64,000 nt of DNA from Escherichia coli (GTDB lineage Bacteria; Pseudomonadota; Gammaproteobacteria; Enterobacterales; Enterobacteriaceae), in assembly GCF_003018255.1 (NCBI RefSeq), contig NZ_CP027440.1. The stretch is one strand, 5' to 3'. The notes beneath the pieces were generated by a model. The model was given only the letters and a program-made list of their open reading frames with translations, did no database searches and was not told where the DNA came from. Of the stretch, positions 1 through 12,831 are shown in pieces. The position numbers and the translations under genes were made by a program. Within the stretch, counting starts at the first letter, position 1, and each line of letters begins with the position of its first letter.

Positions 1-180
1 CAACGCTCGTCCTACTTCCGATGCCGGGACAGAAAAAGAACCCTGCATCAGACCGAATATCAGTATTCCAACCGCAAACAGAAACAGCCCACCAAGCAAC
101 AGCAGATTTTTAGGGCGTACCAGTGTCGAAAACTTACCAACACGTAGTGGGCGTAGCCCGACGTTCATTATCCGACTCAT
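1..180 (-). CDS. iron-siderophore ABC transporter permease (FecCD family), 5' part only; gene runs off the window start
   Basis: Minus-strand ATG at 180-178 overlaps the TGA stop (179-177) of the upstream permease. Translation MSRIMNVGLRPLRVGKFSTLVRPKNLLLLGGLFLFAVGILIFGLMQG is a typical hydrophobic FecCD N-terminus. Absent from the ORF track because it has no in-window stop. Confidence 0.5.
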   Translation of the reverse strand, partial: MSRIMNVGLRPLRVGKFSTLVRPKNLLLLGGLFLFAVGILIFGLMQGSFSVPASEVGRAL

Positions 181-1160
181 TTGAACATCCTCGTCGCCAT
201 AATGACAAAAACAGGCGCACCAACTAACGCCGTCATGACACCGGTCGCTAACTCATGGGGCGTGAAAAGCGTCCGGGCAATAATATCTGCCAGTAATAAC
301 AAAAGTGCGCCGACACAAGCTGAAAGAGGGAGCAGAACGCGCAGATCCGCTGATACCAGACGCCGGACAATCTGCGGTACCAACAGGCCGACAAAACCAA
401 TGGGGCCAGCAATCGATACGGCTGCGCCACAGAGCAACGCGATCGCAAGCAGGGTAAATGTTCGCGTGCGGAGTACAGAGACGCCCAGCCCCTGCGCCAT
501 GCGATCGCCCAGTGCCAACATGTTAAGGTAGGGTGCAAGGTAAAGGGCTAACACAAATCCCCCCAGAGAAAACCAGGCGGACGTACCCAGCGTCGCCCAA
601 TCCTGCCCCGCTAAATCACCTGCTAGCCATGTCCGCATCGCCAGCAGTGTTTGTTCGTCAAGAATCAGGATTGCAGCCGTTATTGAGGACACGAACGCCG
701 ATAGCGCCACGCCGCATAAAGTAACTTTCATTGGCGTTACCCCTGAACGCCCTGCGGAGGAAAGCAGCAATATCAACAGGAACAATAACGCGCCCCCCGT
801 AGATGCCAGCAGTGGGCGTCCAACCGGAAAGGCCAGTCCAAGCGCACTGGCGGCAACGACAGCAAGAGCGGCTCCGGCATTTAAGCCTAAAATATGTGGC
901 TCCCCCAATGGGTTACGAATGACAGCCTGCAACAAAGCACCAGCAACACCAAGAGAAGCACCGGTAAGCAATGCTGCCGCTAAACGCGGCAAACGGAGTC
1001 TTACAATTACGTTGTGATCGAAGTTTTGCGGATCAAAATGAAGAAATGCCTGCAACACCGTTTGTGGTGCAATAAATCGGGCACCAATCCCTGGATATAC
1101 CACGCATCCCACCAGCAGTAAGGCGAGGAAAATTACAGTAACCAGCCCTGTGCGCATCAT
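177..1160 (-). CDS. iron-siderophore/B12-type ABC transporter permease (FecCD family)
   Basis: 327 aa polytopic membrane protein with FecCD-like C-terminal region (GAPVFV...); ATGA overlap with the upstream ATPase gene and with the next permease. Confidence 0.85.
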   Translation of the reverse strand: MMRTGLVTVIFLALLLVGCVVYPGIGARFIAPQTVLQAFLHFDPQNFDHNVIVRLRLPRLAAALLTGASLGVAGALLQAVIRNPLGEPHILGLNAGAALAVVAASALGLAFPVGRPLLASTGGALLFLLILLLSSAGRSGVTPMKVTLCGVALSAFVSSITAAILILDEQTLLAMRTWLAGDLAGQDWATLGTSAWFSLGGFVLALYLAPYLNMLALGDRMAQGLGVSVLRTRTFTLLAIALLCGAAVSIAGPIGFVGLLVPQIVRRLVSADLRVLLPLSACVGALLLLLADIIARTLFTPHELATGVMTALVGAPVFVIMATRMFK

Positions 1161-1966
1161 ACTTTTTCTACACCACGAAACGGCATGAAGAACGGCTTTC
1201 CCGTCAGAGGATTTATTGATGCGTGAACATCAACGTCAAAGACAGCTTTTACCAGCTCAGGCGTGCAATGCTCCCCCTCATTCAACACACGCACCACTTT
1301 CCCCTGGCGTAAAAATATCAACGTATCGCCATAATTGACGGCAAAATTCAGATCATGCAACACCACGACGACTGTACGCCCGTGATGACGCGTTAAATCA
1401 TGTAATAACTCAAGAATTTCAACCTGATAACGTAAATCAAGCCAGGTTGTGGGTTCATCCAGCAGGATATAAGGCGTCTTTTGCGCCAACACCATCGCAA
1501 TCCAGCAACGCTGGCGCTGCCCACCAGAGAGTTTTTCAACAGGTAAATGTGCAAACTCCTGCGTACCGGTTAATTTCAGGGCCTCTTCCACCGCCTGCTC
1601 ATCGGCGTCGCTCCATTGACGTATGAAATTTTGCCAGGGAAAACGCCCACGCGACACCAGTTCATAAACGGTTAAGCCCTCCGGCAATAATGGCGACTGC
1701 GGCAAGATCCCAAGTCTACGGGATAACGCTTTCGTTGGTTGCTCGTGAATCGCTTTGCCATCAAGCAATATCGAACCGCCCATAGGTTGCAAGATACGTG
1801 CAATGGTGCTGAGCAACGTCGACTTTCCACAGCCGTTTGCCCCAACCAGAACGGTCATTTTTTCTGTGGGAACGGAGAAAGAAACACCATCAACAATGAT
1901 CTTCTTGTGATACCCGGCAGAAACATTGTCGAGGATCAGCCCCTGCCCTTTTGCGTTATGTGCCAC
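1157..1966 (-). CDS. ABC transporter ATP-binding protein, FecE/FepC-like (iron-siderophore import)
   Basis: 269 aa; Walker A GANGCGKST, ABC signature LSGGQRQR, Walker B ILLDEPT; first gene of a minus-strand operon divergent from the TonB-dependent receptor. Confidence 0.9.
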   Translation of the reverse strand: MAHNAKGQGLILDNVSAGYHKKIIVDGVSFSVPTEKMTVLVGANGCGKSTLLSTIARILQPMGGSILLDGKAIHEQPTKALSRRLGILPQSPLLPEGLTVYELVSRGRFPWQNFIRQWSDADEQAVEEALKLTGTQEFAHLPVEKLSGGQRQRCWIAMVLAQKTPYILLDEPTTWLDLRYQVEILELLHDLTRHHGRTVVVVLHDLNFAVNYGDTLIFLRQGKVVRVLNEGEHCTPELVKAVFDVDVHASINPLTGKPFFMPFRGVEKV

Positions 1967-2218
1967 GTGTACGCCAACTTAATCAAAGACAAACAAAAAT
2001 AAAACTCATTCTCCTTTGAGAGTTTGACGCCACAAAATGTAGTAGTCAAGCAGTTAAAAGCCACACAAAAACAAGGTAAATAACAGGTAAAATATTTTTA
2101 TACATAAAAATAAAAACATTAAATATCAATAAATTAAAAGCAATCAAATTGTATAAGCCTTTCATAAAAACACATGTAGCAATTTTTTGTTATTTCTCAT
2201 TTACTACTACATTACTGC

Positions 2219-2241
2219 GTGATTGAATGATTCTCAATTAC
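2219..2241. promoter_or_regulatory. weak candidate Fur box in the divergent promoter region between ABC operon and receptor gene
   Basis: GATTGAATGATTCTCAATTA has partial hexamer similarity to the Fur consensus GATAATGATAATCATTATC (about 11 of 21 by eye), inside a 370 bp AT-rich intergenic region. Confidence 0.25.
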
Positions 2242-2339
2242 ATATCCGATGGCGAAATAACAAACGGATAGTGCTTAGTGAGCAATAAGAAACAATTTTC
2301 ACTCGCGACAATCCGCGAGTTTTTGGGATAACAGACTAA

Positions 2340-4481
2340 ATGGCTATGTTCACACCTTCATTCTCAGGACTCAAAGGTCGGGCGCTCTTTTCACTGCTTT
2401 TTGCGGCACCGATGATTCATGCAACAGACTCTGTAACGACCAAAGATGGCGAAACAATCACTGTTACAGCAGATGCAAATACCGCAACTGAGGCAACCGA
2501 TGGTTATCAACCTCTGAGCACCTCCACGGCGACATTAACCGATATGCCGATGCTGGATATCCCGCAGGTGGTCAATACGGTTAGCGATCAGGTTCTGGAA
2601 AACCAGAATGCGACGACGCTGGATGAGGCGCTTTATAACGTCAGTAACGTGGTACAGACCAATACATTAGGCGGGACTCAGGATGCTTTTGTACGCCGTG
2701 GGTTTGGCGCAAACCGGGATGGCTCCATCATGACCAACGGTCTGCGAACCGTACTTCCTCGCAGTTTCAACGCCGCCACAGAACGTGTGGAAGTGCTAAA
2801 AGGCCCGGCCTCCACGCTGTATGGCATTCTCGATCCTGGCGGACTGATTAACGTCGTGACCAAGCGCCCGGAAAAAACATTCCATGGTTCGGTTTCAGCC
2901 ACCTCCTCCAGTTTTGGTGGCGGCACTGGGCAACTTGATATCACAGGTCCCATTGAAGGCACTCAGCTGGCGTATCGCCTTACCGGGGAAGTGCAGGATG
3001 AAGATTACTGGCGAAACTTCGGTAAAGAGCGCAGTACATTTATTGCCCCGTCACTCACCTGGTTTGGTGATAATGCAACAGTAACCATGCTCTATTCCCA
3101 TCGGGACTATAAAACTCCGTTCGATCGTGGAACGATTTTCGACCTTACGACGAAACAGCCCGTAAACGTTGATCGAAAAATACGTTTTGACGAACCGTTT
3201 AATATTACAGATGGTCAGTCCGATCTGGCGCAACTCAACGCAGAATATCATCTCAATAGCCAGTGGACAGCGCGCTTTGATTACAGCTACAGCCAGGATA
3301 AATACAGCGATAATCAGGCGCGTGTTACCGCGTATGATGCAACGACAGGAACACTGACACGGCGTGTTGATGCAACTCAGGGATCTACCCAGCGTATGCA
3401 TGCTACTCGTGCGGATCTGCAAGGGAATGTTGATATTGCCGGATTCTATAATGAGATTCTGGGTGGGGTGTCATATGAATATTATGATCTTCTGCGTACA
3501 GATATGATTCGCTGTAAAAAAGCTAAAGATTTCAATATCTACAACCCTGTTTATGGTAATACCAGCAAATGTACAACGGTTTCGGCGTCGGACAGTGATC
3601 AGACGATCAAACAGGAGAGCTACTCAGCGTATGCACAGGACGCACTCTATCTGACCGATAACTGGATTGCCGTCGCCGGGATCCGCTATCAGTATTACAC
3701 GCAGTATGCGGGTAAAGGCCGTCCTTTTAATGTCAATACTGACAGCCGCGATGAACAATGGACTCCCAAACTGGGGTTGGTCTACAAACTGACGCCATCG
3801 GTATCCTTATTTGCCAATTATTCGCAAACATTTATGCCGCAGTCGTCAATTGCCAGCTACATTGGCGATCTTCCACCGGAATCATCTAATGCTTACGAAG
3901 TCGGGGCAAAATTCGAGCTATTCGATGGTATCACCGCAGATATTGCGCTGTTTGATATCCATAAACGTAATGTGTTGTATACCGAAAGTGTTGGTGATGA
4001 AACCATTGCCAAAACGGCAGGCCGTGTTCGTTCAAGAGGGGTAGAAGTCGACCTTGCGGGAGCATTAACTGAAAACATTAATATCATTGCCAGCTACGGC
4101 TATACCGATGCTAAGGTTCTGGAAGATCCTGATTATGCAGGTAAACCATTGCCGAATGTTCCTCGTCATACCGGTTCGCTATTCCTGACCTATGACATTC
4201 ATAACATGCCTGGCAATAACACACTGACGTTTGGCGGTGGTGGACATGGCGTAAGCCGTCGTTCGGCAACCAATGGGGCTGACTATTATCTGCCAGGCTA
4301 TTTTGTTGCCGATGCCTTCGCCGCATACAAAATGAAATTGCAGTATCCGGTCACACTGCAATTAAACGTCAAAAACCTGTTTGATAAAACGTATTACACC
4401 TCTTCCATCGCCACAAATAATCTGGGGAATCAGATTGGCGATCCGCGTGAAGTGCAATTCACGGTGAAAATGGAATTTTGA
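2340..4481 (+). CDS. TonB-dependent outer-membrane siderophore receptor (FhuA/FhuE-like)
   Basis: 713 aa; signal peptide; TonB-box-like ETITVTA near the N-terminus; plug-domain motifs; C-terminal aromatic residue (VKMEF) typical of OM beta-barrels. Confidence 0.9.
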   Translation: MAMFTPSFSGLKGRALFSLLFAAPMIHATDSVTTKDGETITVTADANTATEATDGYQPLSTSTATLTDMPMLDIPQVVNTVSDQVLENQNATTLDEALYNVSNVVQTNTLGGTQDAFVRRGFGANRDGSIMTNGLRTVLPRSFNAATERVEVLKGPASTLYGILDPGGLINVVTKRPEKTFHGSVSATSSSFGGGTGQLDITGPIEGTQLAYRLTGEVQDEDYWRNFGKERSTFIAPSLTWFGDNATVTMLYSHRDYKTPFDRGTIFDLTTKQPVNVDRKIRFDEPFNITDGQSDLAQLNAEYHLNSQWTARFDYSYSQDKYSDNQARVTAYDATTGTLTRRVDATQGSTQRMHATRADLQGNVDIAGFYNEILGGVSYEYYDLLRTDMIRCKKAKDFNIYNPVYGNTSKCTTVSASDSDQTIKQESYSAYAQDALYLTDNWIAVAGIRYQYYTQYAGKGRPFNVNTDSRDEQWTPKLGLVYKLTPSVSLFANYSQTFMPQSSIASYIGDLPPESSNAYEVGAKFELFDGITADIALFDIHKRNVLYTESVGDETIAKTAGRVRSRGVEVDLAGALTENINIIASYGYTDAKVLEDPDYAGKPLPNVPRHTGSLFLTYDIHNMPGNNTLTFGGGGHGVSRRSATNGADYYLPGYFVADAFAAYKMKLQYPVTLQLNVKNLFDKTYYTSSIATNNLGNQIGDPREVQFTVKMEF

Positions 4482-4588: not shown

Positions 4589-5929
4589 TCATATATTTTT
4601 AGGCTGTAAACACACCTTAATCTGTTCGTAATATTCATTATTAATCAGATAAAATCTCATGATGAGTCCGGTAATCAGGTTAAGTATCGCGGGAATGATC
4701 GTCATTAACAGGCAGATCCCCCACAACGCCTGTGGTGTTTGTTCTACGCCAGGTTGATAGTCCATAAACGCTAAAGCGATTCCGATAAACCCTCCCGCCA
4801 GTCCCATACCAAACTTTTGAAAAAAGAGAATCCCGCCAAATGCCAGTCCAGAAACACGTTGCCCCGTTTTCATTTCACCATAATCCACTGACTCAGCAAT
4901 GGATGCCCAATAAATGGGAAGCTGAATATCAGTCAGAAAGGTCACCACAATATAAAATGTAAAAGCTAACACTATAGAATTTGGTTGCACGAAATACATC
5001 GCACCACCCACCACGAACGCCAGTAATTGGGTATAACGAAATATTTTTATTTTGTCGTAGAGTCGAGTAAGCCAGGTGCAAGCGATCATAGCCAGAACAG
5101 AGGCGATCACGCCTGAAGTTAAAAACGGTGAAATTAAAGCATCCCCACCATTCAGGTAATATTTTGCATAATATGCAGCGACAGAGTTACGAATAATCCC
5201 GCCAAACATAATGATCGCAATTACAGCGCCCAAAATGAGCCATTGATCATTTTTGATCAGTAACCGAAACTGCGCGGCCATACCGAGACTGGGTTTTGGA
5301 TGGTAGATGCGCTCTCTCACGCTAAAAAAACAATACAGGCATAAACACGTTGCCAGAATTCCCATTGCCCCCATTGCTATTTGATAACCCAGTTGTACGT
5401 TATTCTTCCCAAGATACATTGCAGATAAAGGAACAATAATTGTTACGGCGAACATGGCAATTTTTGTCATAACAAAACGATAACCATTGGCGCTCAATCG
5501 CTCTTGTGGATCATCCGTGATAACGCTGATTAATGAAACATAAGGAATAGCGATTAACGTATAGGTCAAGGTAAGTAACACATAGGTAGCCCAAGCCCAT
5601 AAAAGCTTAACTGAATAATCGGTATTAGGTGTGGTGAACATCAACCAAATGCTTATCCCAAACGGTATTGACATAAAAAGCAACCACGGCCGATATTTTC
5701 CCCAACGTGTATTCGTTCTGTCTGTCATTGTTCCCACAACTGGATCAATCACAGCATCAAGGATACGTACAGAAAATAACAGAATACCTAAGTCGACGGG
5801 TTTCAGACCAAATACATCCGTGTAAAAATAAGTGATGATCATGGCCAAAGACATCATTACTATCGCGATAGCCATATCACCAGCACCAAAACCTATCTTT
5901 TCATTTATTGTAAGTTTCATACACAGCAC
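4589..5929 (-). CDS. GPH-family (glycoside-pentoside-hexuronide) cation symporter
   Basis: About 445 aa polytopic protein; N-terminal GPH/MelB-type signature YFYTDVFGL...RILDAVIDPVVGTMTDRTNTRWGKYRPWLL; true start may be the second Met (5920). Confidence 0.85.
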   Translation of the reverse strand: MLCMKLTINEKIGFGAGDMAIAIVMMSLAMIITYFYTDVFGLKPVDLGILLFSVRILDAVIDPVVGTMTDRTNTRWGKYRPWLLFMSIPFGISIWLMFTTPNTDYSVKLLWAWATYVLLTLTYTLIAIPYVSLISVITDDPQERLSANGYRFVMTKIAMFAVTIIVPLSAMYLGKNNVQLGYQIAMGAMGILATCLCLYCFFSVRERIYHPKPSLGMAAQFRLLIKNDQWLILGAVIAIIMFGGIIRNSVAAYYAKYYLNGGDALISPFLTSGVIASVLAMIACTWLTRLYDKIKIFRYTQLLAFVVGGAMYFVQPNSIVLAFTFYIVVTFLTDIQLPIYWASIAESVDYGEMKTGQRVSGLAFGGILFFQKFGMGLAGGFIGIALAFMDYQPGVEQTPQALWGICLLMTIIPAILNLITGLIMRFYLINNEYYEQIKVCLQPKNI

Positions 5930-6010
5930 TCATTGATTACGTGAACTTATATTAAAAACAAATATATCTGAACTCATTCAGCACATAACTTTACGAGTGA
6001 GCATAAATGC

Positions 6011-6025
6011 ATTGGTTGATACCAC
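6011..6025. promoter_or_regulatory. candidate operator dyad TTGGT-N4-ACCAC (site 1)
   Basis: ATTGGTTGATACCAC in the divergent intergenic region, about 90 bp upstream of the GPH transporter start; same dyad ends as site 2. Confidence 0.35.
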
Positions 6026-6173
6026 AACAAACCATTGAGTCAATATTGAGCAACATCACATAAAAACCAATTTCACTTAATCTCATGATTTATATATTTA
6101 ATTGTGGTTTTTTCTGTTTTATGTCACAGATAGTGAACAAGCACCATGCGTAATAAAAGTTAAAGAATGTAGA

Positions 6174-6188
6174 GTTGGTATCAACCAC
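6174..6188. promoter_or_regulatory. candidate operator dyad TTGGT-N4-ACCAC (site 2)
   Basis: GTTGGTATCAACCAC just upstream of the RBS of the GntR-family gene; the central 4 nt are the reverse complement of site 1. Confidence 0.35.
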
Positions 6189-6206
6189 TTGAAATGAGGC
6201 TTTGTC

Positions 6207-6959
6207 ATGATAAAAATTTATAAAGCCAGTAAAGGTCAGCTAAAGCATCGTGAAATCTTTGATGAAATAAAGAAAAAAGTAGATAACGGTGAATGGAAAG
6301 AAGGCAAAGCCATACCGACAGAAAGGGAATTGTCAGAATATTATTTAAGTAGCAGAACAACTATTCGAAAGGCAATAGAAAGTCTTAAACAACGCGGCTA
6401 CCTGCATAGTGTCCACGGGCAAGGAACATTTGTATTGCCTTCTCGTAGTAGAGAAAATCATTTATTGCATAGTTTTACCGACGATATTAAAGCTCGAGGT
6501 GGTATACCAGCACAGAATATTCTTGAGATAGGCTATGTTCCTGTCAGTGATGTTATCAGAAAAAATCTCGACCTGGATATCCATATCCAAACCGTATTCT
6601 GTATAAAACGCGTTCGCTATATGGGAAGTACCCCCCTGGGTATTCAGACATCATGGCTTGCATTAAATGACAGGCAAGAAATAACCCAAGAAGATCTGCT
6701 GGCGACGGGTTCGCTCTATATTTTACTGGAAGAAAAACTCGCTATTAAACCTTTAGAAGCAACAGAAATTATCTCTGCCCGGCTTCCCTCGCCCCTTGAG
6801 CGTCAATTACTGGAACTGACTGCCGATGATGTCGTATTAAGTTGTACCCGCGTCACGTTATCCGTGGAACGCAAACCAATGGAGTATGTAGAGATGGTGT
6901 ATCCCGCAAGCCGGTACTCCTACAAAGCACGAATTACAAAAGACAGTTTTAGCGTGTAA
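6207..6959 (+). CDS. GntR-family transcriptional regulator, HutC/FrlR-like (HTH plus UTRA-type C-terminal domain)
   Basis: 250 aa; N-terminal GntR HTH pattern (ERELSEYYLSSRTTIRKAIESL...GYL.SVHGQGTFV); first gene of a tightly packed co-directional array. Confidence 0.85.
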   Translation: MIKIYKASKGQLKHREIFDEIKKKVDNGEWKEGKAIPTERELSEYYLSSRTTIRKAIESLKQRGYLHSVHGQGTFVLPSRSRENHLLHSFTDDIKARGGIPAQNILEIGYVPVSDVIRKNLDLDIHIQTVFCIKRVRYMGSTPLGIQTSWLALNDRQEITQEDLLATGSLYILLEEKLAIKPLEATEIISARLPSPLERQLLELTADDVVLSCTRVTLSVERKPMEYVEMVYPASRYSYKARITKDSFSV

Positions 6960-6972
6960 CAGAGAGAATATT

Positions 6973-8049
6973 GTGAACAAAATAGAACAAGCTGTAATTT
7001 ATAACAAAATATTAGGTTCTTTAGCCTGCGCAGGTATGGGCGATGCATTAGGCGCAGCGACTGAACTCTACAGCATTGATGAAATAAAAGCTCAATGGGG
7101 AGGTTTTTTAAATGCCTTTGTTTCTCCTCCTGCCGATACATTCGCTGGCTCATTAAATGGTATTGCGGGACTTATCACCGACGATTCCAGCCAAATGTAT
7201 GTGTTTTCAGAAGGGTTAATTGAGGCTGGATTTGATAACTTCACCAATAATGACTGGTTAGCTTGTCTTCTGCGTTGGGCCGATATGCAGCCCTACGCAA
7301 ATTATAAAGGCCCCACAACAGAACAAATCGTCAAGGCACTAAAAGAAGGTAGACCAACAAACACCATTGGGCGTATTGGAACATCTTCTCGTCAGGCACC
7401 CAATGTCGGCACCACGAATGGAGCAGGAATGCGTGTAGCCCCTGCAGGATTGATCTGGCCAGGCAAGAAAGAAAAAGCGTGTCACCTGGCGCTAATAACT
7501 TGCCTACCTTCGCATGACACCAATATTGCGATTGCCAGCGCTTGCGCCATCGCTGCGGCGACATCACAAGCTATGTTACCAGAAGCTTCGCTCACATCAT
7601 TACTGGACGCCGCAATCTGGGGAGCGAATTACGGCGAACGCCTGGCCAAACAATATGCACGATGTGTCGCAGGGCCATCTATCGCCATGCGCATCCAACT
7701 TGCAGCGGACATCGCCAGACGAGCCAATGACCTGGAGTCTTGTCTGCGAGAAATGGAAGGTTTGGTTGGTAACTCTGTTGCCGCCCATGAATCCATTCCT
7801 GCGGCAATCGGTCTATTGCTGTACTGCAAAGGAGAACCCTGGGAAACCATTCATGCCTGCGCCAATATTGGCAATGACACCGATAGCATCGCTACGATGG
7901 CAGGCGCAATTGCAGGGGCATGGCGCGGTTTTGATGCGCTCCCTGAAGATAAATATGCCTTTTTCCGCGCCGTAAATAATAAAGATTTCGATATTGAAGC
8001 GATCGCATCGGGTCTGACATTGCTTGCATTAGAGGCACAGGAGAAATAA
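6973..8049 (+). CDS. ADP-ribosylglycohydrolase-family (DraG/ARH-like) hydrolase
   Basis: 358 aa; GTG start 14 nt after the regulator stop; N-terminal GSLACAGMGDALGAATE and C-terminal GNDTDSIATMAGAIAGA match the two metal-binding signature regions of the family. Confidence 0.8.
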   Translation: MNKIEQAVIYNKILGSLACAGMGDALGAATELYSIDEIKAQWGGFLNAFVSPPADTFAGSLNGIAGLITDDSSQMYVFSEGLIEAGFDNFTNNDWLACLLRWADMQPYANYKGPTTEQIVKALKEGRPTNTIGRIGTSSRQAPNVGTTNGAGMRVAPAGLIWPGKKEKACHLALITCLPSHDTNIAIASACAIAAATSQAMLPEASLTSLLDAAIWGANYGERLAKQYARCVAGPSIAMRIQLAADIARRANDLESCLREMEGLVGNSVAAHESIPAAIGLLLYCKGEPWETIHACANIGNDTDSIATMAGAIAGAWRGFDALPEDKYAFFRAVNNKDFDIEAIASGLTLLALEAQEK

Positions 8050-9047
8050 TGAACATGCCAGCCCGTACTCCTGTTATGCCATTAGCGCAAACTCGTGAGG
8101 AGATAAATGCTACGGCGGCATCGTTACGCCATTTGGCAGCTATCTGGGGTGAATGTTTTTCTACTTTTCAGCTCGATAAACGTGCTGTTGAACGCGTCTG
8201 TATAGTGGGATCGGGCGACTCCTGGACGGTGGCACTATGTGCCGCCGCCTGGCTGGGGAAATACACACATCTGTTTTGTTACGCATTGCAAACGTGGGAT
8301 TTTCTTCAGACTGATTTAACCCGTTATCAGAAAGAAACGTTAATCATTATTCTCAGTGCAAGTGGCAGACCATCAATGACCGTTGACGCCCTCTGCCACG
8401 CAGTATGCTCAAACGCGCAAGTGCTGGGTGTGACGAATTGCCCTGGAACACCATTTTGCGCAATAACAGAAAACATGCTCTATACATGGGCGAATAAGCA
8501 GGGTATTCCAACGCAAAGTAGTAGCGTCACACTTTATGCCCTCCTGCGCTTAGCGCAAAAATTATGTCCAGGCTTAACACCACTGCAGATTGAAGATGAT
8601 TTGGAAGGGAAATTTAGCCAGATTAATCAGCACTGGCAGCAAAAGAAGCGCCATTTTTACCAACAAAAAGAGATAACGTTTCTTGGGAGTGGCTTAAGTT
8701 GGGGACTGGCAATATCGGGGAGCAATTTACTTTCTTGCGGCCCACAGATTCGTGCGACAGCCCTTCCACTGGAAGAATTTTATCATTCATTACGCTTACA
8801 TCAGGCTGGTGTCGGTCAGCATTATATTTTACTACCAGCCACATCCTGCGAGTCCCCATTTTACCTTGCAACCCAAAAAGCAATTGTTGAACAGGGAGCG
8901 ACAGCAGAATTAATCAGTTTTATACCTGACGCCAGTGAGTCCAACAATTTATTTCTGGTCATGCAGTGGTTATATGAAATGTGCTGGAATTTAAGTTGTG
9001 ATTATGTCGACGCAGGCGGGCAACGCGTTAGCCATAGGGAGAAATAA
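8049..9047 (+). CDS. double SIS-domain sugar-phosphate isomerase/deglycase-like protein
   Basis: 332 aa; start overlaps the upstream stop (TAATG); SIS motifs VCIVGSGDSWTVAL...LIIILSASGRPSMTVDAL...VLGVTN and a second GSGLSW repeat; unusually Cys/Trp rich. Confidence 0.65.
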   Translation: MNMPARTPVMPLAQTREEINATAASLRHLAAIWGECFSTFQLDKRAVERVCIVGSGDSWTVALCAAAWLGKYTHLFCYALQTWDFLQTDLTRYQKETLIIILSASGRPSMTVDALCHAVCSNAQVLGVTNCPGTPFCAITENMLYTWANKQGIPTQSSSVTLYALLRLAQKLCPGLTPLQIEDDLEGKFSQINQHWQQKKRHFYQQKEITFLGSGLSWGLAISGSNLLSCGPQIRATALPLEEFYHSLRLHQAGVGQHYILLPATSCESPFYLATQKAIVEQGATAELISFIPDASESNNLFLVMQWLYEMCWNLSCDYVDAGGQRVSHREK

Positions 9048-9051
9048 GACT

Positions 9052-9966
9052 ATGAAGAAATTTGATGTCGCCGCTTTAGGCAGTGGAAATATAGATATTT
9101 TTTTATCTATCCCGTCACTCCCCACTCGTGGCGGTAAAGTTGTCGGGACACGTCTGGGTGAACAAGCTGGCGGCACAGTCGCCAACAGTGCCTGTGCGAT
9201 GGGACAACTGGGTCTCAATGTGGTATCTGTTTCATGTGTGGGCAATGATCATTCAGCCTCGATCATTCTTGATGGATTTAAAAAATATCATGTAAATTGT
9301 GATTTCGTTCAGGTAATTCCGGAATTGATTGCCAATACCGCGATTATCTTTATTGATGAATTAGGTGAAAAAACGTTGGTTTACTCGCCTGGTAGTGATC
9401 ATGAGTGGGATAAAGAAAAAGCCCTGCAGGCAATTGCGCAAAGCCGTTATTTTTATACGATGCCAGCAGATATCGAGAAATTTCGTATGCTGGCCGAATA
9501 TTCCCGTAGCCAGATGACAAAAGTTGTCGTTGATATTGAGCCTCATATCATTGCAACACCTGAACACCTTGCCAGAATTTTACACCTTGCTGATATTGCG
9601 ATATTTAATTATGACGGTTTTATTCGTGGCTATGCAACAGAGCCAGATTTTACACTTCTGCATGATATACAAGACGAGTATCAACTTGACGCTGTCGTGG
9701 TTACGCTGGATGTTAGGGGAGTAATTGCAGTCAAAGGCAATGAGCAAGTAAAAATAGGTAGTTATACAATTCCCGTTATTGATACCACAGGCGCTGGAGA
9801 TACTTTTAATGGTGCATTTGTTTATAGCTTAATAAAAAATATGCCCTTAATTGAAGCACTAAAATTTGCTTCTGCCACAGCAGCAATAAATATTACTGCA
9901 TTAGGTGCCAGAGGTCATCTGCCGACACCATCGGAGGTTAATCTTTTTCTTTCACAACACGACTAA
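9052..9966 (+). CDS. PfkB-family carbohydrate/nucleoside kinase (ribokinase-like)
   Basis: About 304 aa taking Met at 9052, 5 nt after the SIS stop (the ORF-track start 8998 is an upstream extension); PfkB signature DTTGAGDTFNGAF and N-terminal AALGSGNIDIF. Confidence 0.85.
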   Translation: MKKFDVAALGSGNIDIFLSIPSLPTRGGKVVGTRLGEQAGGTVANSACAMGQLGLNVVSVSCVGNDHSASIILDGFKKYHVNCDFVQVIPELIANTAIIFIDELGEKTLVYSPGSDHEWDKEKALQAIAQSRYFYTMPADIEKFRMLAEYSRSQMTKVVVDIEPHIIATPEHLARILHLADIAIFNYDGFIRGYATEPDFTLLHDIQDEYQLDAVVVTLDVRGVIAVKGNEQVKIGSYTIPVIDTTGAGDTFNGAFVYSLIKNMPLIEALKFASATAAINITALGARGHLPTPSEVNLFLSQHD

Positions 9967-9993
9967 AATCATATATATACAAAGGTAAATATC

Positions 9994-11118
9994 ATGAAAA
10001 TAAGATATGCCGCTATTTTTCTGGCATTACCGCTGTTATGCACAACAGCGCAGGCAAACAGTTTTCTTCATTATGCTGGGGAGTTTAACTTCCGGACGGG
10101 AGAAAAGCAGAACAATGTCACAATCGCGGGGCTATCAGCCATCACATTTGATGCAAAAAAAAATATTTTCTATGCTATTAACGATAGCAGAAACAATAAT
10201 AAAGAAGGAGATGCCAGTCTTTATACACTAAAAATACAGGTATCATCCAGGGGCATTGAGCAAGTGAATTTTCTCAACCAGCGTCCACTGCTTGATGCAA
10301 AACAGCAACCTTTCGTGACCAATACGGTGGATGCCGAAGGTCTGGCCCTGACACACAATGGTAAATCATTACTCTGGAGTTCGGAGTTAGGTGCTCCACT
10401 GCGTCTGAGCACTCTCGATGGCGTAATGGAGAAAGATTTTACGTCTTTATTTCCTGCTCGCTTTAATATTAGTTCTGACAAAGAGAGCAGCAATGGTATT
10501 CGCAGCGGCAACGCCTGGGAGGGCCTGACAGTTACACCAGATGGAAAATCACTTTTTATCGCCGTTGAAAGCAGCCTTAAACAGGATGGGCCTATTGCAA
10601 GTCCAATAAATTCAGGCACATCACGCTTACTGCAATTTTCTATAGATGCAGACGGTCGACCTTCAAAGCAATTGCATGAATATCTCTATATTACTGATCC
10701 TGTTCCGCAAGTGAGTAAGTTCGGTATTAATGATAATGGCGTATCCGAGGTCATGGCGCTGAATGATCACCAATTGTTGGTCATCGAACGTTCCGGCAGA
10801 AACGTCAGTGCTGGGTTCAATGACTGGGATTACTCTGTCAGAGTTTATATGGTCGATTTAACTGCTGCCAGCGATATCAAGAATATTGACAGTCTGCAAG
10901 ATTGGTCCAATAAATCCACGTTACAACCCGTCAGTAAAAAATTATTAATTGATTTTGCTGATTACACTTCCTCTGCGGATTGTATTGAAGGGGTAACCTT
11001 CGGTCCTCTGATTGATGGGCATACATCGTTAATATTTGTATCTGATAATAATTTCCAGCCCCATCAACAGACGAAATTTTATCTATTCATTGATAAGGAA
11101 AACAAACTTAAAATTTAA
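9994..11118 (+). CDS. secreted protein of unknown function, possibly phytase-like/beta-propeller esterase fold (tentative)
   Basis: 374 aa; N-terminal signal peptide (LALPLLCTTAQA); AT-rich codon usage; function inferred only from general resemblance. Confidence 0.5.
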   Translation: MKIRYAAIFLALPLLCTTAQANSFLHYAGEFNFRTGEKQNNVTIAGLSAITFDAKKNIFYAINDSRNNNKEGDASLYTLKIQVSSRGIEQVNFLNQRPLLDAKQQPFVTNTVDAEGLALTHNGKSLLWSSELGAPLRLSTLDGVMEKDFTSLFPARFNISSDKESSNGIRSGNAWEGLTVTPDGKSLFIAVESSLKQDGPIASPINSGTSRLLQFSIDADGRPSKQLHEYLYITDPVPQVSKFGINDNGVSEVMALNDHQLLVIERSGRNVSAGFNDWDYSVRVYMVDLTAASDIKNIDSLQDWSNKSTLQPVSKKLLIDFADYTSSADCIEGVTFGPLIDGHTSLIFVSDNNFQPHQQTKFYLFIDKENKLKI

Positions 11119-11213
11119 AGTCAAACTATAGATACAAAAACATTCTAATACATGGAATCATCAGATGGTGTATTCGATCACCAAAAATATATTTTATTCT
11201 GAAAGGGAATATT

Positions 11214-11948
11214 ATGAATTCTTATCTTAAAATATCACTTGCAGGAATAACAATGTTATCCTGCCTGTCACCTACACTAGTCTGTGCAGAACAGCCGCAT
11301 GGATTTATTGATTATCGCCATGAGTATCTTGATGATACTCGCACCCACGCGGACCGCGTTGAATTTGGTACATTTTTTAGTAATGGTATCGGTTTGATGG
11401 GAGAATTACGCTATAACACCGATGAAGGTGATAAAGATAAGTGGGACCCCTCACAATTTGGCAATAACGGAACAGGATTATCTGTTGTTTACCGCTTTAA
11501 GCCGCTGGATGACAAAAAATTCTGGTTAGAACCCATGTTCTGGCTTGATACCACGCAATATTGGTCAACTTACGAATATGGTCTTTCTGCGGGTTATGAC
11601 TTCAGCAAAGAATGGAAAGTTTCAGGTCGGTTTCGTTATGACATGGATAAAGCCACCGATAAATCCAAAGGTTATGGCAACGATGATCGTAATAACCGCC
11701 GTTACGATGTGTGGATCGACTATCGACCACAAAAAACCAACTTCCAATATCAGTTAAACCTGGTCTATTACAATAATGGTTATTTAACCTGGAATGATGG
11801 CCATAAAAACTATACCGCATCATTTAAAGTAGGGTACAAAATGGGATCGTGGATACCCTATATGAGTATTGCGGATTATAAAGGTGTGGATAAAACATCA
11901 AGTAATCGCCAAATCCGCTGGCGCTGGGGTCTGACTTATACTTTCTAA
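11214..11948 (+). CDS. small outer-membrane beta-barrel protein, KdgM/NanC-like porin (tentative)
   Basis: 244 aa; signal peptide; alternating aromatic/hydrophilic strands; C-terminal WRWGLTYTF ending in Phe as in OM barrels. Confidence 0.5.
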   Translation: MNSYLKISLAGITMLSCLSPTLVCAEQPHGFIDYRHEYLDDTRTHADRVEFGTFFSNGIGLMGELRYNTDEGDKDKWDPSQFGNNGTGLSVVYRFKPLDDKKFWLEPMFWLDTTQYWSTYEYGLSAGYDFSKEWKVSGRFRYDMDKATDKSKGYGNDDRNNRRYDVWIDYRPQKTNFQYQLNLVYYNNGYLTWNDGHKNYTASFKVGYKMGSWIPYMSIADYKGVDKTSSNRQIRWRWGLTYTF

Positions 11949-11961
11949 TCTGGAATAAAAA

Positions 11962-12831
11962 ATGAATAATAAATTTAAAATCATTCTCTGGATGATGCTC
12001 TCTGCTCTGCCTGCTTTATCTTACGCACAGGTAAAAAATATAGTTACTGGCGAATATAGTGCGGTCAGTAAAATTATCACAGAAAAGGAAACTCTCTATC
12101 CATCCGATAAGATATTATTGGTTTTTGACATTGATAACACGTTATTAACGAGTGGCACTCGCATTGGCGGTGATATCTGGTATCAATGGCAAACCGATAA
12201 ATTGCCTTTAAAGCCGGATGACTCGCAAAAAGTTCCTTGCCTGTATGAAAATACAATCAGTATGCTTTACGAACTTAGCCCTATGCAGCTTACCGAGCCA
12301 CAGTTACCGACAATGTTAAAACAGTGGCAACAAAAGCATACCGCTTTTGCTCTGACATCCCGTGCACCGGATACTCTCTTTCCGACATTGCGGGAATTAA
12401 AGCGAAACGGCATTGATTTTTCGTCTTCCGCACTCAGGAAGAAAGAGGATACTTTGCCACCCTTTGAAAAAGGGAAACTCAAACGGTCATGGCTGTACAG
12501 CCAGGGGGTATTTTTTTCTTCCGGGCAAGATAAAGGCGTAATTCTCGATTATATGCTGGATAAAATGGGGAACAAATATGACGCGATTGTTTTTATCGAT
12601 GACGGGCAAGCAAACATTCATGCGATGACGAAGATGTTCTCTAAGGATAAATGGTCCTCTACGGATTTTACCATTATTCACTATACCAGAGTGGAGGATG
12701 AGCTTATTAAACAACAAGGTGCAGTAATAACAACTGCACAAGCAGAAAAAATGGCTACGGACTGGAAAACTCTGGCTGGTTCGCTGGCAACACTATTTCC
12801 AGATCGTAATAAACTGTGCCCAATAAAATAA
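11962..12831 (+). CDS. secreted HAD-superfamily phosphatase (acid-phosphatase-like)
   Basis: 289 aa; signal peptide; HAD motif I LVFDIDNTLL and motif IV-like VFIDDGQAN. Confidence 0.55.
   Translation: MNNKFKIILWMMLSALPALSYAQVKNIVTGEYSAVSKIITEKETLYPSDKILLVFDIDNTLLTSGTRIGGDIWYQWQTDKLPLKPDDSQKVPCLYENTISMLYELSPMQLTEPQLPTMLKQWQQKHTAFALTSRAPDTLFPTLRELKRNGIDFSSSALRKKEDTLPPFEKGKLKRSWLYSQGVFFSSGQDKGVILDYMLDKMGNKYDAIVFIDDGQANIHAMTKMFSKDKWSSTDFTIIHYTRVEDELIKQQGAVITTAQAEKMATDWKTLAGSLATLFPDRNKLCPIK

Follow-up and report, generated by a model that had tools for sequence, protein, structure and literature searches.

Two regulators of N-acetylglucosamine and chitin genes, DasR of Streptomyces coelicolor and NagR (YvoA) of Bacillus subtilis, combine a GntR wHTH with a UTRA domain. 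The core of their dre operator is TGGTCTAGACCA, and the nag operator of B. subtilis reads TGGTATAGATCA (PMC2853113). A GT-N4-AC spacing is the rule for operators of the HutC subfamily (PMC4494728). In the crystal structure of the NagR-DNA complex, Arg38, Arg48 and Gly69 contact G-5, G-4 and G-7 of the dre half-site, the last of them through the wing, and native Bacillus dre sites carry the G at -7 in one half-site only (PMC4333415). The operator of FadR, which belongs to a GntR subfamily of its own name, also has TGGT/ACCA arms, which are read by two arginines (PMC2853113 Table 3; PMC4333415), but its spacer is 3 nt long (TGGTNNNACCA) instead of the 4 nt of the sites discussed here, and its effector domain is FCD rather than UTRA.

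Among the E. coli systems that have been studied, GgaR (YegW) with yegTUV of strain K-12 comes closest in its genes: a HutC-type repressor lies beside a transporter, the ADP-ribosylglycohydrolase YegU and the PfkB kinase YegV. FrlR/FraR-type HutC regulators of the frl and fra operons for Amadori compounds are repressors encoded beside a SIS enzyme, a PfkB kinase and a transporter, an arrangement that is also found here. The frl/fra operons are not known to contain ADP-ribosylglycohydrolase, periplasmic esterase or porin genes or to be associated with nucleoside genes. GgaR is described as a single-target regulator with two adjacent binding sites that is released by a nucleotide-sugar effector; no motif was defined in the corresponding paper (PMC10819704).

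The present analysis concerns two TGGT-N4-ACCA dyads, O1 and O2, found in an accessory island of E. coli within the window, i.e., the whole stretch of 64,000 nucleotides that was analysed. Based on sequence comparison, O1 and O2 are in all likelihood operators of the island's own HutC-subfamily GntR regulator, whose repression would extend to the transporter gene, its own gene and the operon that follows, putatively one for sugar or nucleoside breakdown. The switch is of an ordinary kind with a conventional mechanism, and it appears to have been undescribed so far.

Genomic setting and gene content of the island

The window belongs to the E. coli chromosome, with parE, yqiA and cpdA to the right of the region, and positions 4589-12831 form an AT-rich accessory island. 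This island is carried by approximately 405 of the 5426 complete E. coli genomes (~7%) and is also present in Enterobacter, Providencia, Leclercia, Kosakonia and Vibrio. Its leftmost gene (4589-5920, minus strand) encodes a GPH/MFS_2 (glycoside-pentoside-hexuronide) symporter, which scores 348 bits against TIGR00792 gph, above the cut-off, and is annotated as an MFS transporter in RefSeq. The remaining genes lie on the plus strand. A GntR/HutC-subfamily regulator of 250 aa (6207-6959; Pfam GntR and UTRA) is followed by an ADP-ribosylglycohydrolase (ARH, 6973-8049), a SIS-domain protein (8049-9047), a PfkB/ribokinase-like kinase (9052-9966), a phytase-like esterase (9994-11118), a KdgM-family porin (11214-11948) and a DUF2608 protein (11962-12831), the last six being assigned from open reading frames, RefSeq annotation and Pfam matches obtained via orthologues. 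From 6973 to 12831, the intergenic gaps range from an overlap up to 27 bp, except for the 95 bp preceding the porin gene, and the genes of this stretch probably constitute one operon transcribed from the promoter that O2 would control.

The best PDB matches of the ARH are MJ1187 and ARH3. In other genera (L009, L010, L012, L003, L013 and L008), the cluster is accompanied by adenosine deaminase, purine nucleoside phosphorylase (PNP), a 5'-nucleotidase, a Tsx channel or a Bmp-type ABC transporter. Literature searches on the gene cluster found nothing specific to it. In one strain, E. coli Z142-3 (L017, 463-5409), three copies of IS1 have broken up the island: a frameshift interrupts the transporter gene, the genes for the regulator and the enzymes have been lost by deletion, and what is left of the porin gene is truncated.

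The likeness to the yeg cluster is one of gene content, and the two systems are only distantly related. The regulators share 26% identity, the ARH proteins 32% and the kinases 22%, and genes for SIS, phytase-like, KdgM and DUF2608 proteins, all of which are present in the island, are missing from the yeg cluster. The fbaB/yegT spacer of E. coli K-12 (L015) contains no TGGT-N4-ACCA; GGTATT-type repeats are found there instead. Given the low identity of the regulators and the different repeats in the target spacer, GgaR/YegW was rejected as the same system. The repeats themselves, which lie just upstream of yegT (L015, 2566-2821), are of the GGTATT/AATACC type (AAGGTATTT, AAGGTATTA, GTGGTATTG, GTACCTT and TTACCTG) and represent a candidate for the GgaR motif.

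The regulator

Pfam places a GntR domain at residues 15-76 of the island regulator (PF00392, E = 3.3e-16) and a UTRA effector domain of the chorismate-lyase fold at residues 97-237 (PF07702, E = 4.8e-23), and this combination of a GntR wHTH with UTRA is, as judged from these domain matches, the architecture of the HutC subfamily. The same two domains occur in every homologue that covers at least 95% of the query. Five partial homologues with 42-72% coverage (P0017, P0032, P0034, P0037 and the 182-aa P0018) are truncated, and four of them have UTRA without GntR. The NCBIfam models for HutC, PhnF and TreR all score below their curated cut-offs and no equivalog model passes; therefore, the protein is no equivalog of HutC, PhnF, TreR or another named regulator.

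The closest relatives of solved structure are DasR (1e-25) and YvoA/NagR (2e-19), which have the same domain architecture and the identical Arg/Arg/Gly contacts. In a gap-free alignment to YvoA, R40 (in helix 2), R50 (where the recognition helix begins) and G71 (in the wing) of the island regulator correspond to Arg38, Arg48 and Gly69 of NagR, and they are retained in 33, 32 and 30, respectively, of the 33 aligned sequences (that of the window and 32 orthologues). Nevertheless, DasR and NagR are not orthologous to the island regulator, as the NCBIfam equivalogs all remain below cut-off, and their targets differ: in place of N-acetylglucosamine and chitin genes, the island holds ARH, SIS, PfkB, esterase, porin, DUF2608 and GPH genes with no nag genes, in a gamma-proteobacterial host.

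A substitution at one of the contact residues was encountered in E. coli. P0001, the database representative of the regulator cluster of the second E. coli allele (allele B, see below), is 92% identical to the regulator of the window and has the substitution R50G; the corresponding NagR residue is Arg48, the one in contact with G-4. R50G was ruled out as a property of allele B, since the allele-B protein of strain RM10466 has R50, and P0001 is thus a single natural variant. It is predicted to be defective in operator binding.

The putative operator pair

O1 and O2 both lie in the 286-bp divergent region between the GPH transporter gene on the minus strand and the regulator gene on the plus strand, and as dyads neither has a strand of its own. 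O1 (ATTGGTTGATACCAC, 6011-6025) has its core TGGTTGATACCA at 6013-6024, on the side of the transporter promoter, 93 bp ahead of the start codon of the transporter gene (ATG at 5920, minus strand). O2 (GTTGGTATCAACCAC, 6174-6188), with the core TGGTATCAACCA at 6176-6187, stands directly 5' of the ribosome-binding site of the regulator gene; it ends 20 bp before the ATG (6207), ahead of the GAGG Shine-Dalgarno sequence at 6196-6199. The sequences and coordinates given in the original prediction were exact on re-reading, including the identity of the arms, and these distances bear out its placement of one dyad upstream of the GPH transporter and the other 5' of the regulator RBS.

The 12-nt cores are perfect inverted copies of one another, 151 bp apart, and the distance from centre to centre is 163 bp, or about 15.5 helical turns. 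The reverse complementarity of the two central tetranucleotides, TGAT and ATCA, had also been pointed out. This is true of the allele in the window but is lost in the commoner allele B, in which site 1 is TGGTAGATACCA; hence, the relation is allele-specific and has no functional meaning.

Both sites conform to the HutC-operator rule NyGT-N4-ACNy, and their resemblance to DasR/NagR-type boxes, as originally proposed, is borne out by arms and a GT-N4-AC spacing that match the dre core, with DasR and NagR being the closest solved relatives of the regulator. Their flanks are asymmetric on the plus strand (TTGGT...ACCAC), with a G at -7 in one half-site only, as in the native dre sites of Bacillus. 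The two motifs differ in the centre, which is CTAG or ATAG in dre and variable in the island sites (ATCA, TGAT, AGAT, GTAG or ACGT). Because of this variable centre, a regulator from another orthologous group and unrelated target genes, the system falls outside the DasR/NagR regulon.

The dyads do not occur at the frequency expected by chance. Five TGGT-N4-ACCA sequences were found in the 64-kb window against 0.86 expected from shuffled sequence, and at a background of 0.043 per kb, derived from 117 kb of related loci, the probability of two such dyads within 286 bp is ~7e-5. A position weight matrix (PWM) trained on orthologue sites alone (consensus ATATTGGTATATACCAATAT) places O1 first (18.6 bits) and O2 third (16.9 bits) among all positions of the window.

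The second rank (17.0 bits) is taken by a perfect site with good flanks, TGGTACAGACCA, at 2650-2661, approximately 310 bp inside the coding sequence of the neighbouring TonB-dependent siderophore receptor. This site is probably due to chance, because the coding DNA of related loci contains a perfect core roughly every 20 kb. Owing to such chance occurrences inside coding regions, a perfect core alone is no proof of function.

Conservation across orthologous loci

The comparison covered related loci with 47-92% regulator identity, namely those of Enterobacter sp. (L002), Vibrio europaeus (L003), Providencia (L010), Leclercia (L011), Kosakonia (L012) and V. artabrorum (L013), together with metagenomic contigs (L006-L009 and L014) and the second E. 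coli allele (L016). A scan of the genome collection with the regulator protein contributed 2 useful loci, and most of the others were obtained by exact-protein look-ups.

The dyads are kept in both position and arms across 12 related loci. All eight enterobacterial loci in which the arms are perfect have a perfect dyad 15-23 bp ahead of the regulator ATG, and in six of these eight it is the identical TGGTATCAACCA. A second dyad, adjoining a divergent GPH or KdgM-GPH operon, is located 162-166 bp from the first in seven loci (177 bp in Kosakonia; 152/178 bp in L014). At the position of O1, the loci L002, L006, L008, L009, L010 and E. coli allele B share a perfect TGGT-N4-ACCA and the flank ACCACAA; the core of L012 is likewise perfect there, but its flank reads ACCAAAG. 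Two places have a single site each, namely L007 and the lone regulator gene of L011. With a mean column identity of 53% in the intergenic alignment, both dyads stand out as conserved blocks.

Among the orthologues only, 21 perfect cores fall within 4,556 bp of regulatory DNA, compared with 5 in 116,994 bp elsewhere (Poisson P ~2e-35), and all 21, like both sites of the window, have the 4-nt spacer. When every dyad with 4-nt arms and a spacer of 0-12 nt was counted, TGGT-N4 came first (10 of 11 loci), and the runners-up were nested readings of the same site. Such conservation across orthologues excludes chance.

The sites also follow their target genes. In Leclercia, which has a rearranged cluster, the regulator gene stands alone with one site 15 bp upstream, and the ARH operon and the GPH gene, which have become divergent from each other, share two sites 162 bp apart, one of them 55 bp before the GPH start. 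The dyads of this cluster have thus migrated together with the genes they serve. In the Vibrio loci, sites are located ahead of the KdgM porin, Tsx channel and regulator genes. The V. artabrorum locus (L013, 2005-3876) has two divergent paralogues with GntR and UTRA domains, and between them lie a perfect TGGTTCGTACCA and a one-mismatch TGGTACGAACCT.

While the arms are essentially invariant, the centre varies (ATCA, TGAT, AGAT, AACT, ATAT, GTAG and ACGT). In a subclade comprising L012 and L014, and also P0031 of Yersinia, the recognition helix reads NRIT instead of SRTT and the wing AK-GN instead of HG-GT, and the operators of the NRIT subclade have the centre GTAG or GTAC (L012 5798-5809 and 5975-5986; L014 2562-2573, 2740-2751 and 2892-2903). 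The arms in L014 are asymmetric throughout, TGGT...TCCA, with three copies of TGGTGTACTCCA. Judged from these alignments, the pairing of the NRIT helix with the GTAG/GTAC centre looks like a case of protein-DNA co-variation.

Within E. coli, the allele of the window is present in about 121 complete genomes, and allele B (L016, strain RM10466) is commoner, with about 284. The two alleles are 90.6% identical in the divergent region (window 5915-6212) and their regulators differ at 18 residues. The dyad arms are unchanged in allele B, and the one alteration within the sites affects the first central base of site 1. Taken alone, this within-species comparison does not reach significance, as no change was observed among the 16 arm positions and 1.6 were expected. 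At the other end of the island, the porin protein is identical between the alleles and the spacer upstream of its gene (11100-11220) is 99% identical; a diverged promoter and regulator next to a near-identical porin end implies a recombination mosaic. The left sides differ as well: the island follows directly after ygiN in allele B, and genes for a TonB-dependent receptor and an ABC transporter (177-4481) lie there in the window.

Proposed regulation of the divergent promoters

Conservation in 12 loci, the domains and contact residues of the regulator and the GT-N4-AC spacing all support the earlier suggestion that the dyads are candidate operators of the adjacent GntR/HutC regulator. By homology to NagR, a dimer would bind each 12-14 bp dyad, (T/G)TGGT-N4-ACCA(C/A). 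In the major groove, both guanines of a TGGT arm would be recognised by Arg40 and Arg50, and the wing with Gly71 would be placed in the minor groove.

For the regulator operon, a hand-read -10 candidate, TAGAGT (6170-6175, plus strand), abuts O2, which would then lie between this hexamer and the RBS of the regulator gene. On the minus strand, the transporter may have a -35 at TTGTGG (6027-6022), overlapping the ACCACAA flank of O1, and a -10 at TATGCT (6005-6000), also read by hand; O1 would thus cover the -35 and spacer of the proposed transporter promoter. A consensus sigma-70 scan of the region yielded no convincing promoter, its sole match being an implausible one that overlaps a start codon. 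As the hand-read hexamers are weak and the scan does not return them, the overlap of operators and promoters is put forward as a hypothesis only. With this placement, the bound regulator would exclude or block RNA polymerase at both promoters, and the repressed set would consist of the transporter gene, the regulator gene and the ARH-SIS-PfkB-esterase(-porin-DUF2608) genes. Release of the repressor would be brought about by a small molecule on the UTRA domain, most likely an intermediate of the pathway such as the phosphorylated product of the PfkB kinase. The TATCAA found in both operators was considered as an extended -10 (TGnTATCAA) and set aside, since it lacks the last T and L010, L011, L012 and Vibrio do not conserve the centre.

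Two CRP-like sites, each matching 8 of 10 consensus positions and likewise without a strand of their own, are located between the operators. The centre of ATTGAGCAACATCACA (6045-6060) is 34 bp from that of O1, an offset (33-34 bp) that is repeated in L002, L006, L008, L009, L010 and L012 and mirrored in L011; the site forms a conserved block of the intergenic alignment. The centre of TCTGTTTTATGTCACA (6113-6128) is 61 bp from that of O2; a CRP-like site occurs 59-62 bp from O2 in L007, L009 and L012, again mirrored in L011, and that of L009, AGTGATTTCTGTCACA, matches 9 of 10 positions. If the right-hand site stood at about -61.5, transcription of the regulator operon would start near 6182, and O2 would cover the start site. 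The matches and their offsets suggest that cAMP-CRP also activates both divergent promoters, as a form of catabolite control.

The local regulator might also bind the dyads in a different capacity, by activating or acting dually at one of the promoters, or by bridging O1 and O2 so that repression would depend on a loop between the two sites. The tight spacing of the pair (162-166 bp in seven loci, including the rearranged divergent region of Leclercia) would suit such a loop, and a site 93 bp from the transporter start codon also fits the position of an upstream activator. We consider this unlikely. The characterised members of the HutC family, among them NagR, DasR and GgaR, act as dimers that repress until an effector releases them (PMC4333415, PMC10819704). 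About 15.5 turns would place the sites on opposite faces of the helix, the spacing departs to 177 bp in Kosakonia and to 152/178 bp in L014, and single sites exist in L007 and at the lone L011 regulator gene. The common distance may merely reflect an inherited promoter architecture with two CRP-like sites.

Binding by another transcription factor of the host genome, either a further GntR-family protein such as FadR or a paralogue of HutC, is very unlikely. TGGT/ACCA arms are indeed common to several GntR-family operators, including that of FadR (TGGTNNNACCA; PMC2853113 Table 3), and several HutC-type paralogues exist in E. coli, e.g., GgaR/YegW. However, in the various genera that carry the island, the dyad is invariably found next to the regulator gene of the island itself. 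The spacing of FadR is N3 and not N4, and GgaR is just 26% identical, with GGTATT repeats and no TGGT-N4-ACCA at its own promoter. Moreover, the operator centre co-varies with the recognition helix and wing of the local regulator, which points to the latter as the binder.

That the pair is non-regulatory, consisting of chance palindromes in AT-rich DNA, terminal inverted repeats of a small mobile element (MITE) or hairpins of a 5'-leader RNA, is extremely improbable: the cores do form a perfect 12-nt inverted repeat flanking 151 bp in an island that was horizontally acquired and is interrupted by IS1 copies in one strain, but conservation over 12 loci (P ~2e-35) speaks against chance, the mobile element is rejected given sites that are not inverted copies in allele B, L010 and others and an interval of 151 bp made up of conserved promoter-like and CRP-like blocks with no transposase, and RNA hairpins are rejected on the basis of unremarkable folds (z-scores +0.16 and -0.40) and arms that are strictly conserved and not co-varying.

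Predicted pathway and regulon

With O1 and O2 taken as operators of the local regulator, the motif delimits a predicted regulon, i.e., the transporter gene and the six or seven genes of the operon. Judging by these genes, the island may serve a so far uncharacterised pathway that acts on a compound containing a nucleoside or ribose. A more specific reading, which we offer tentatively as plausible but short of favoured, is that the regulon belongs to an uncharacterised catabolic pathway, spread by horizontal transfer, whose substrate is an extracellular compound of the nucleoside type in ribosylated or phosphorylated form. On this reading, the compound would enter through a KdgM or Tsx porin, be trimmed in the periplasm by the phytase-like esterase, the DUF2608 protein and a 5'-nucleotidase, and be imported by a GPH or Bmp-ABC transporter. 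In the cytoplasm, an ARH3-like glycohydrolase, the SIS enzyme and the ribokinase-like kinase, often with adenosine deaminase and PNP, would take part. The regulator would then sense a new effector, and the operator pair at a fixed ~163 bp together with the two CRP sites would act as a dual-input divergent switch.

The dyad motif provides a testable handle on an unstudied accessory island of ~7% of complete E. coli genomes. It permits the use of reporter fusions to seek the inducer, and hence the substrate, of the ADP-ribosylglycohydrolase/SIS/PfkB pathway. In addition, the system would represent a proteobacterial case in which the dre-like TGGT-N4-ACCA frame and the Arg/Arg/Gly contacts of NagR have been reused for a different regulon.

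The dyad upstream of the porin gene

The original prediction included a related dyad, TGGTG-N8-CACCA, upstream of the porin gene. The dyad is present at 11166-11183, within the 95-bp spacer and 31 bp before the porin ATG (11214), but its relatedness to O1 and O2 is not supported. Neither L006, the nearest of the orthologous loci that keep this gene order, nor L002 contains it, and in these two loci the gap between the esterase and porin genes is 34-47 bp. The corresponding spacing, TGGT-N10-ACCA, has no occurrence in 4.6 kb of orthologous regulatory DNA, and the maximum of the PWM in the porin-upstream spacer is -5.0 bits. On these grounds, the N8 dyad was rejected as a third operator. Between the E. 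coli alleles, the near-identity of this spacer (99%) makes it uninformative with regard to the dyad. As an RNA hairpin, the dyad is unremarkable (z = -0.79), with no U-tract after the stem. It could be part of an internal promoter specific to E. coli, or nothing. The Vibrio porin genes, which have their own promoters, are preceded by normal N4 sites.
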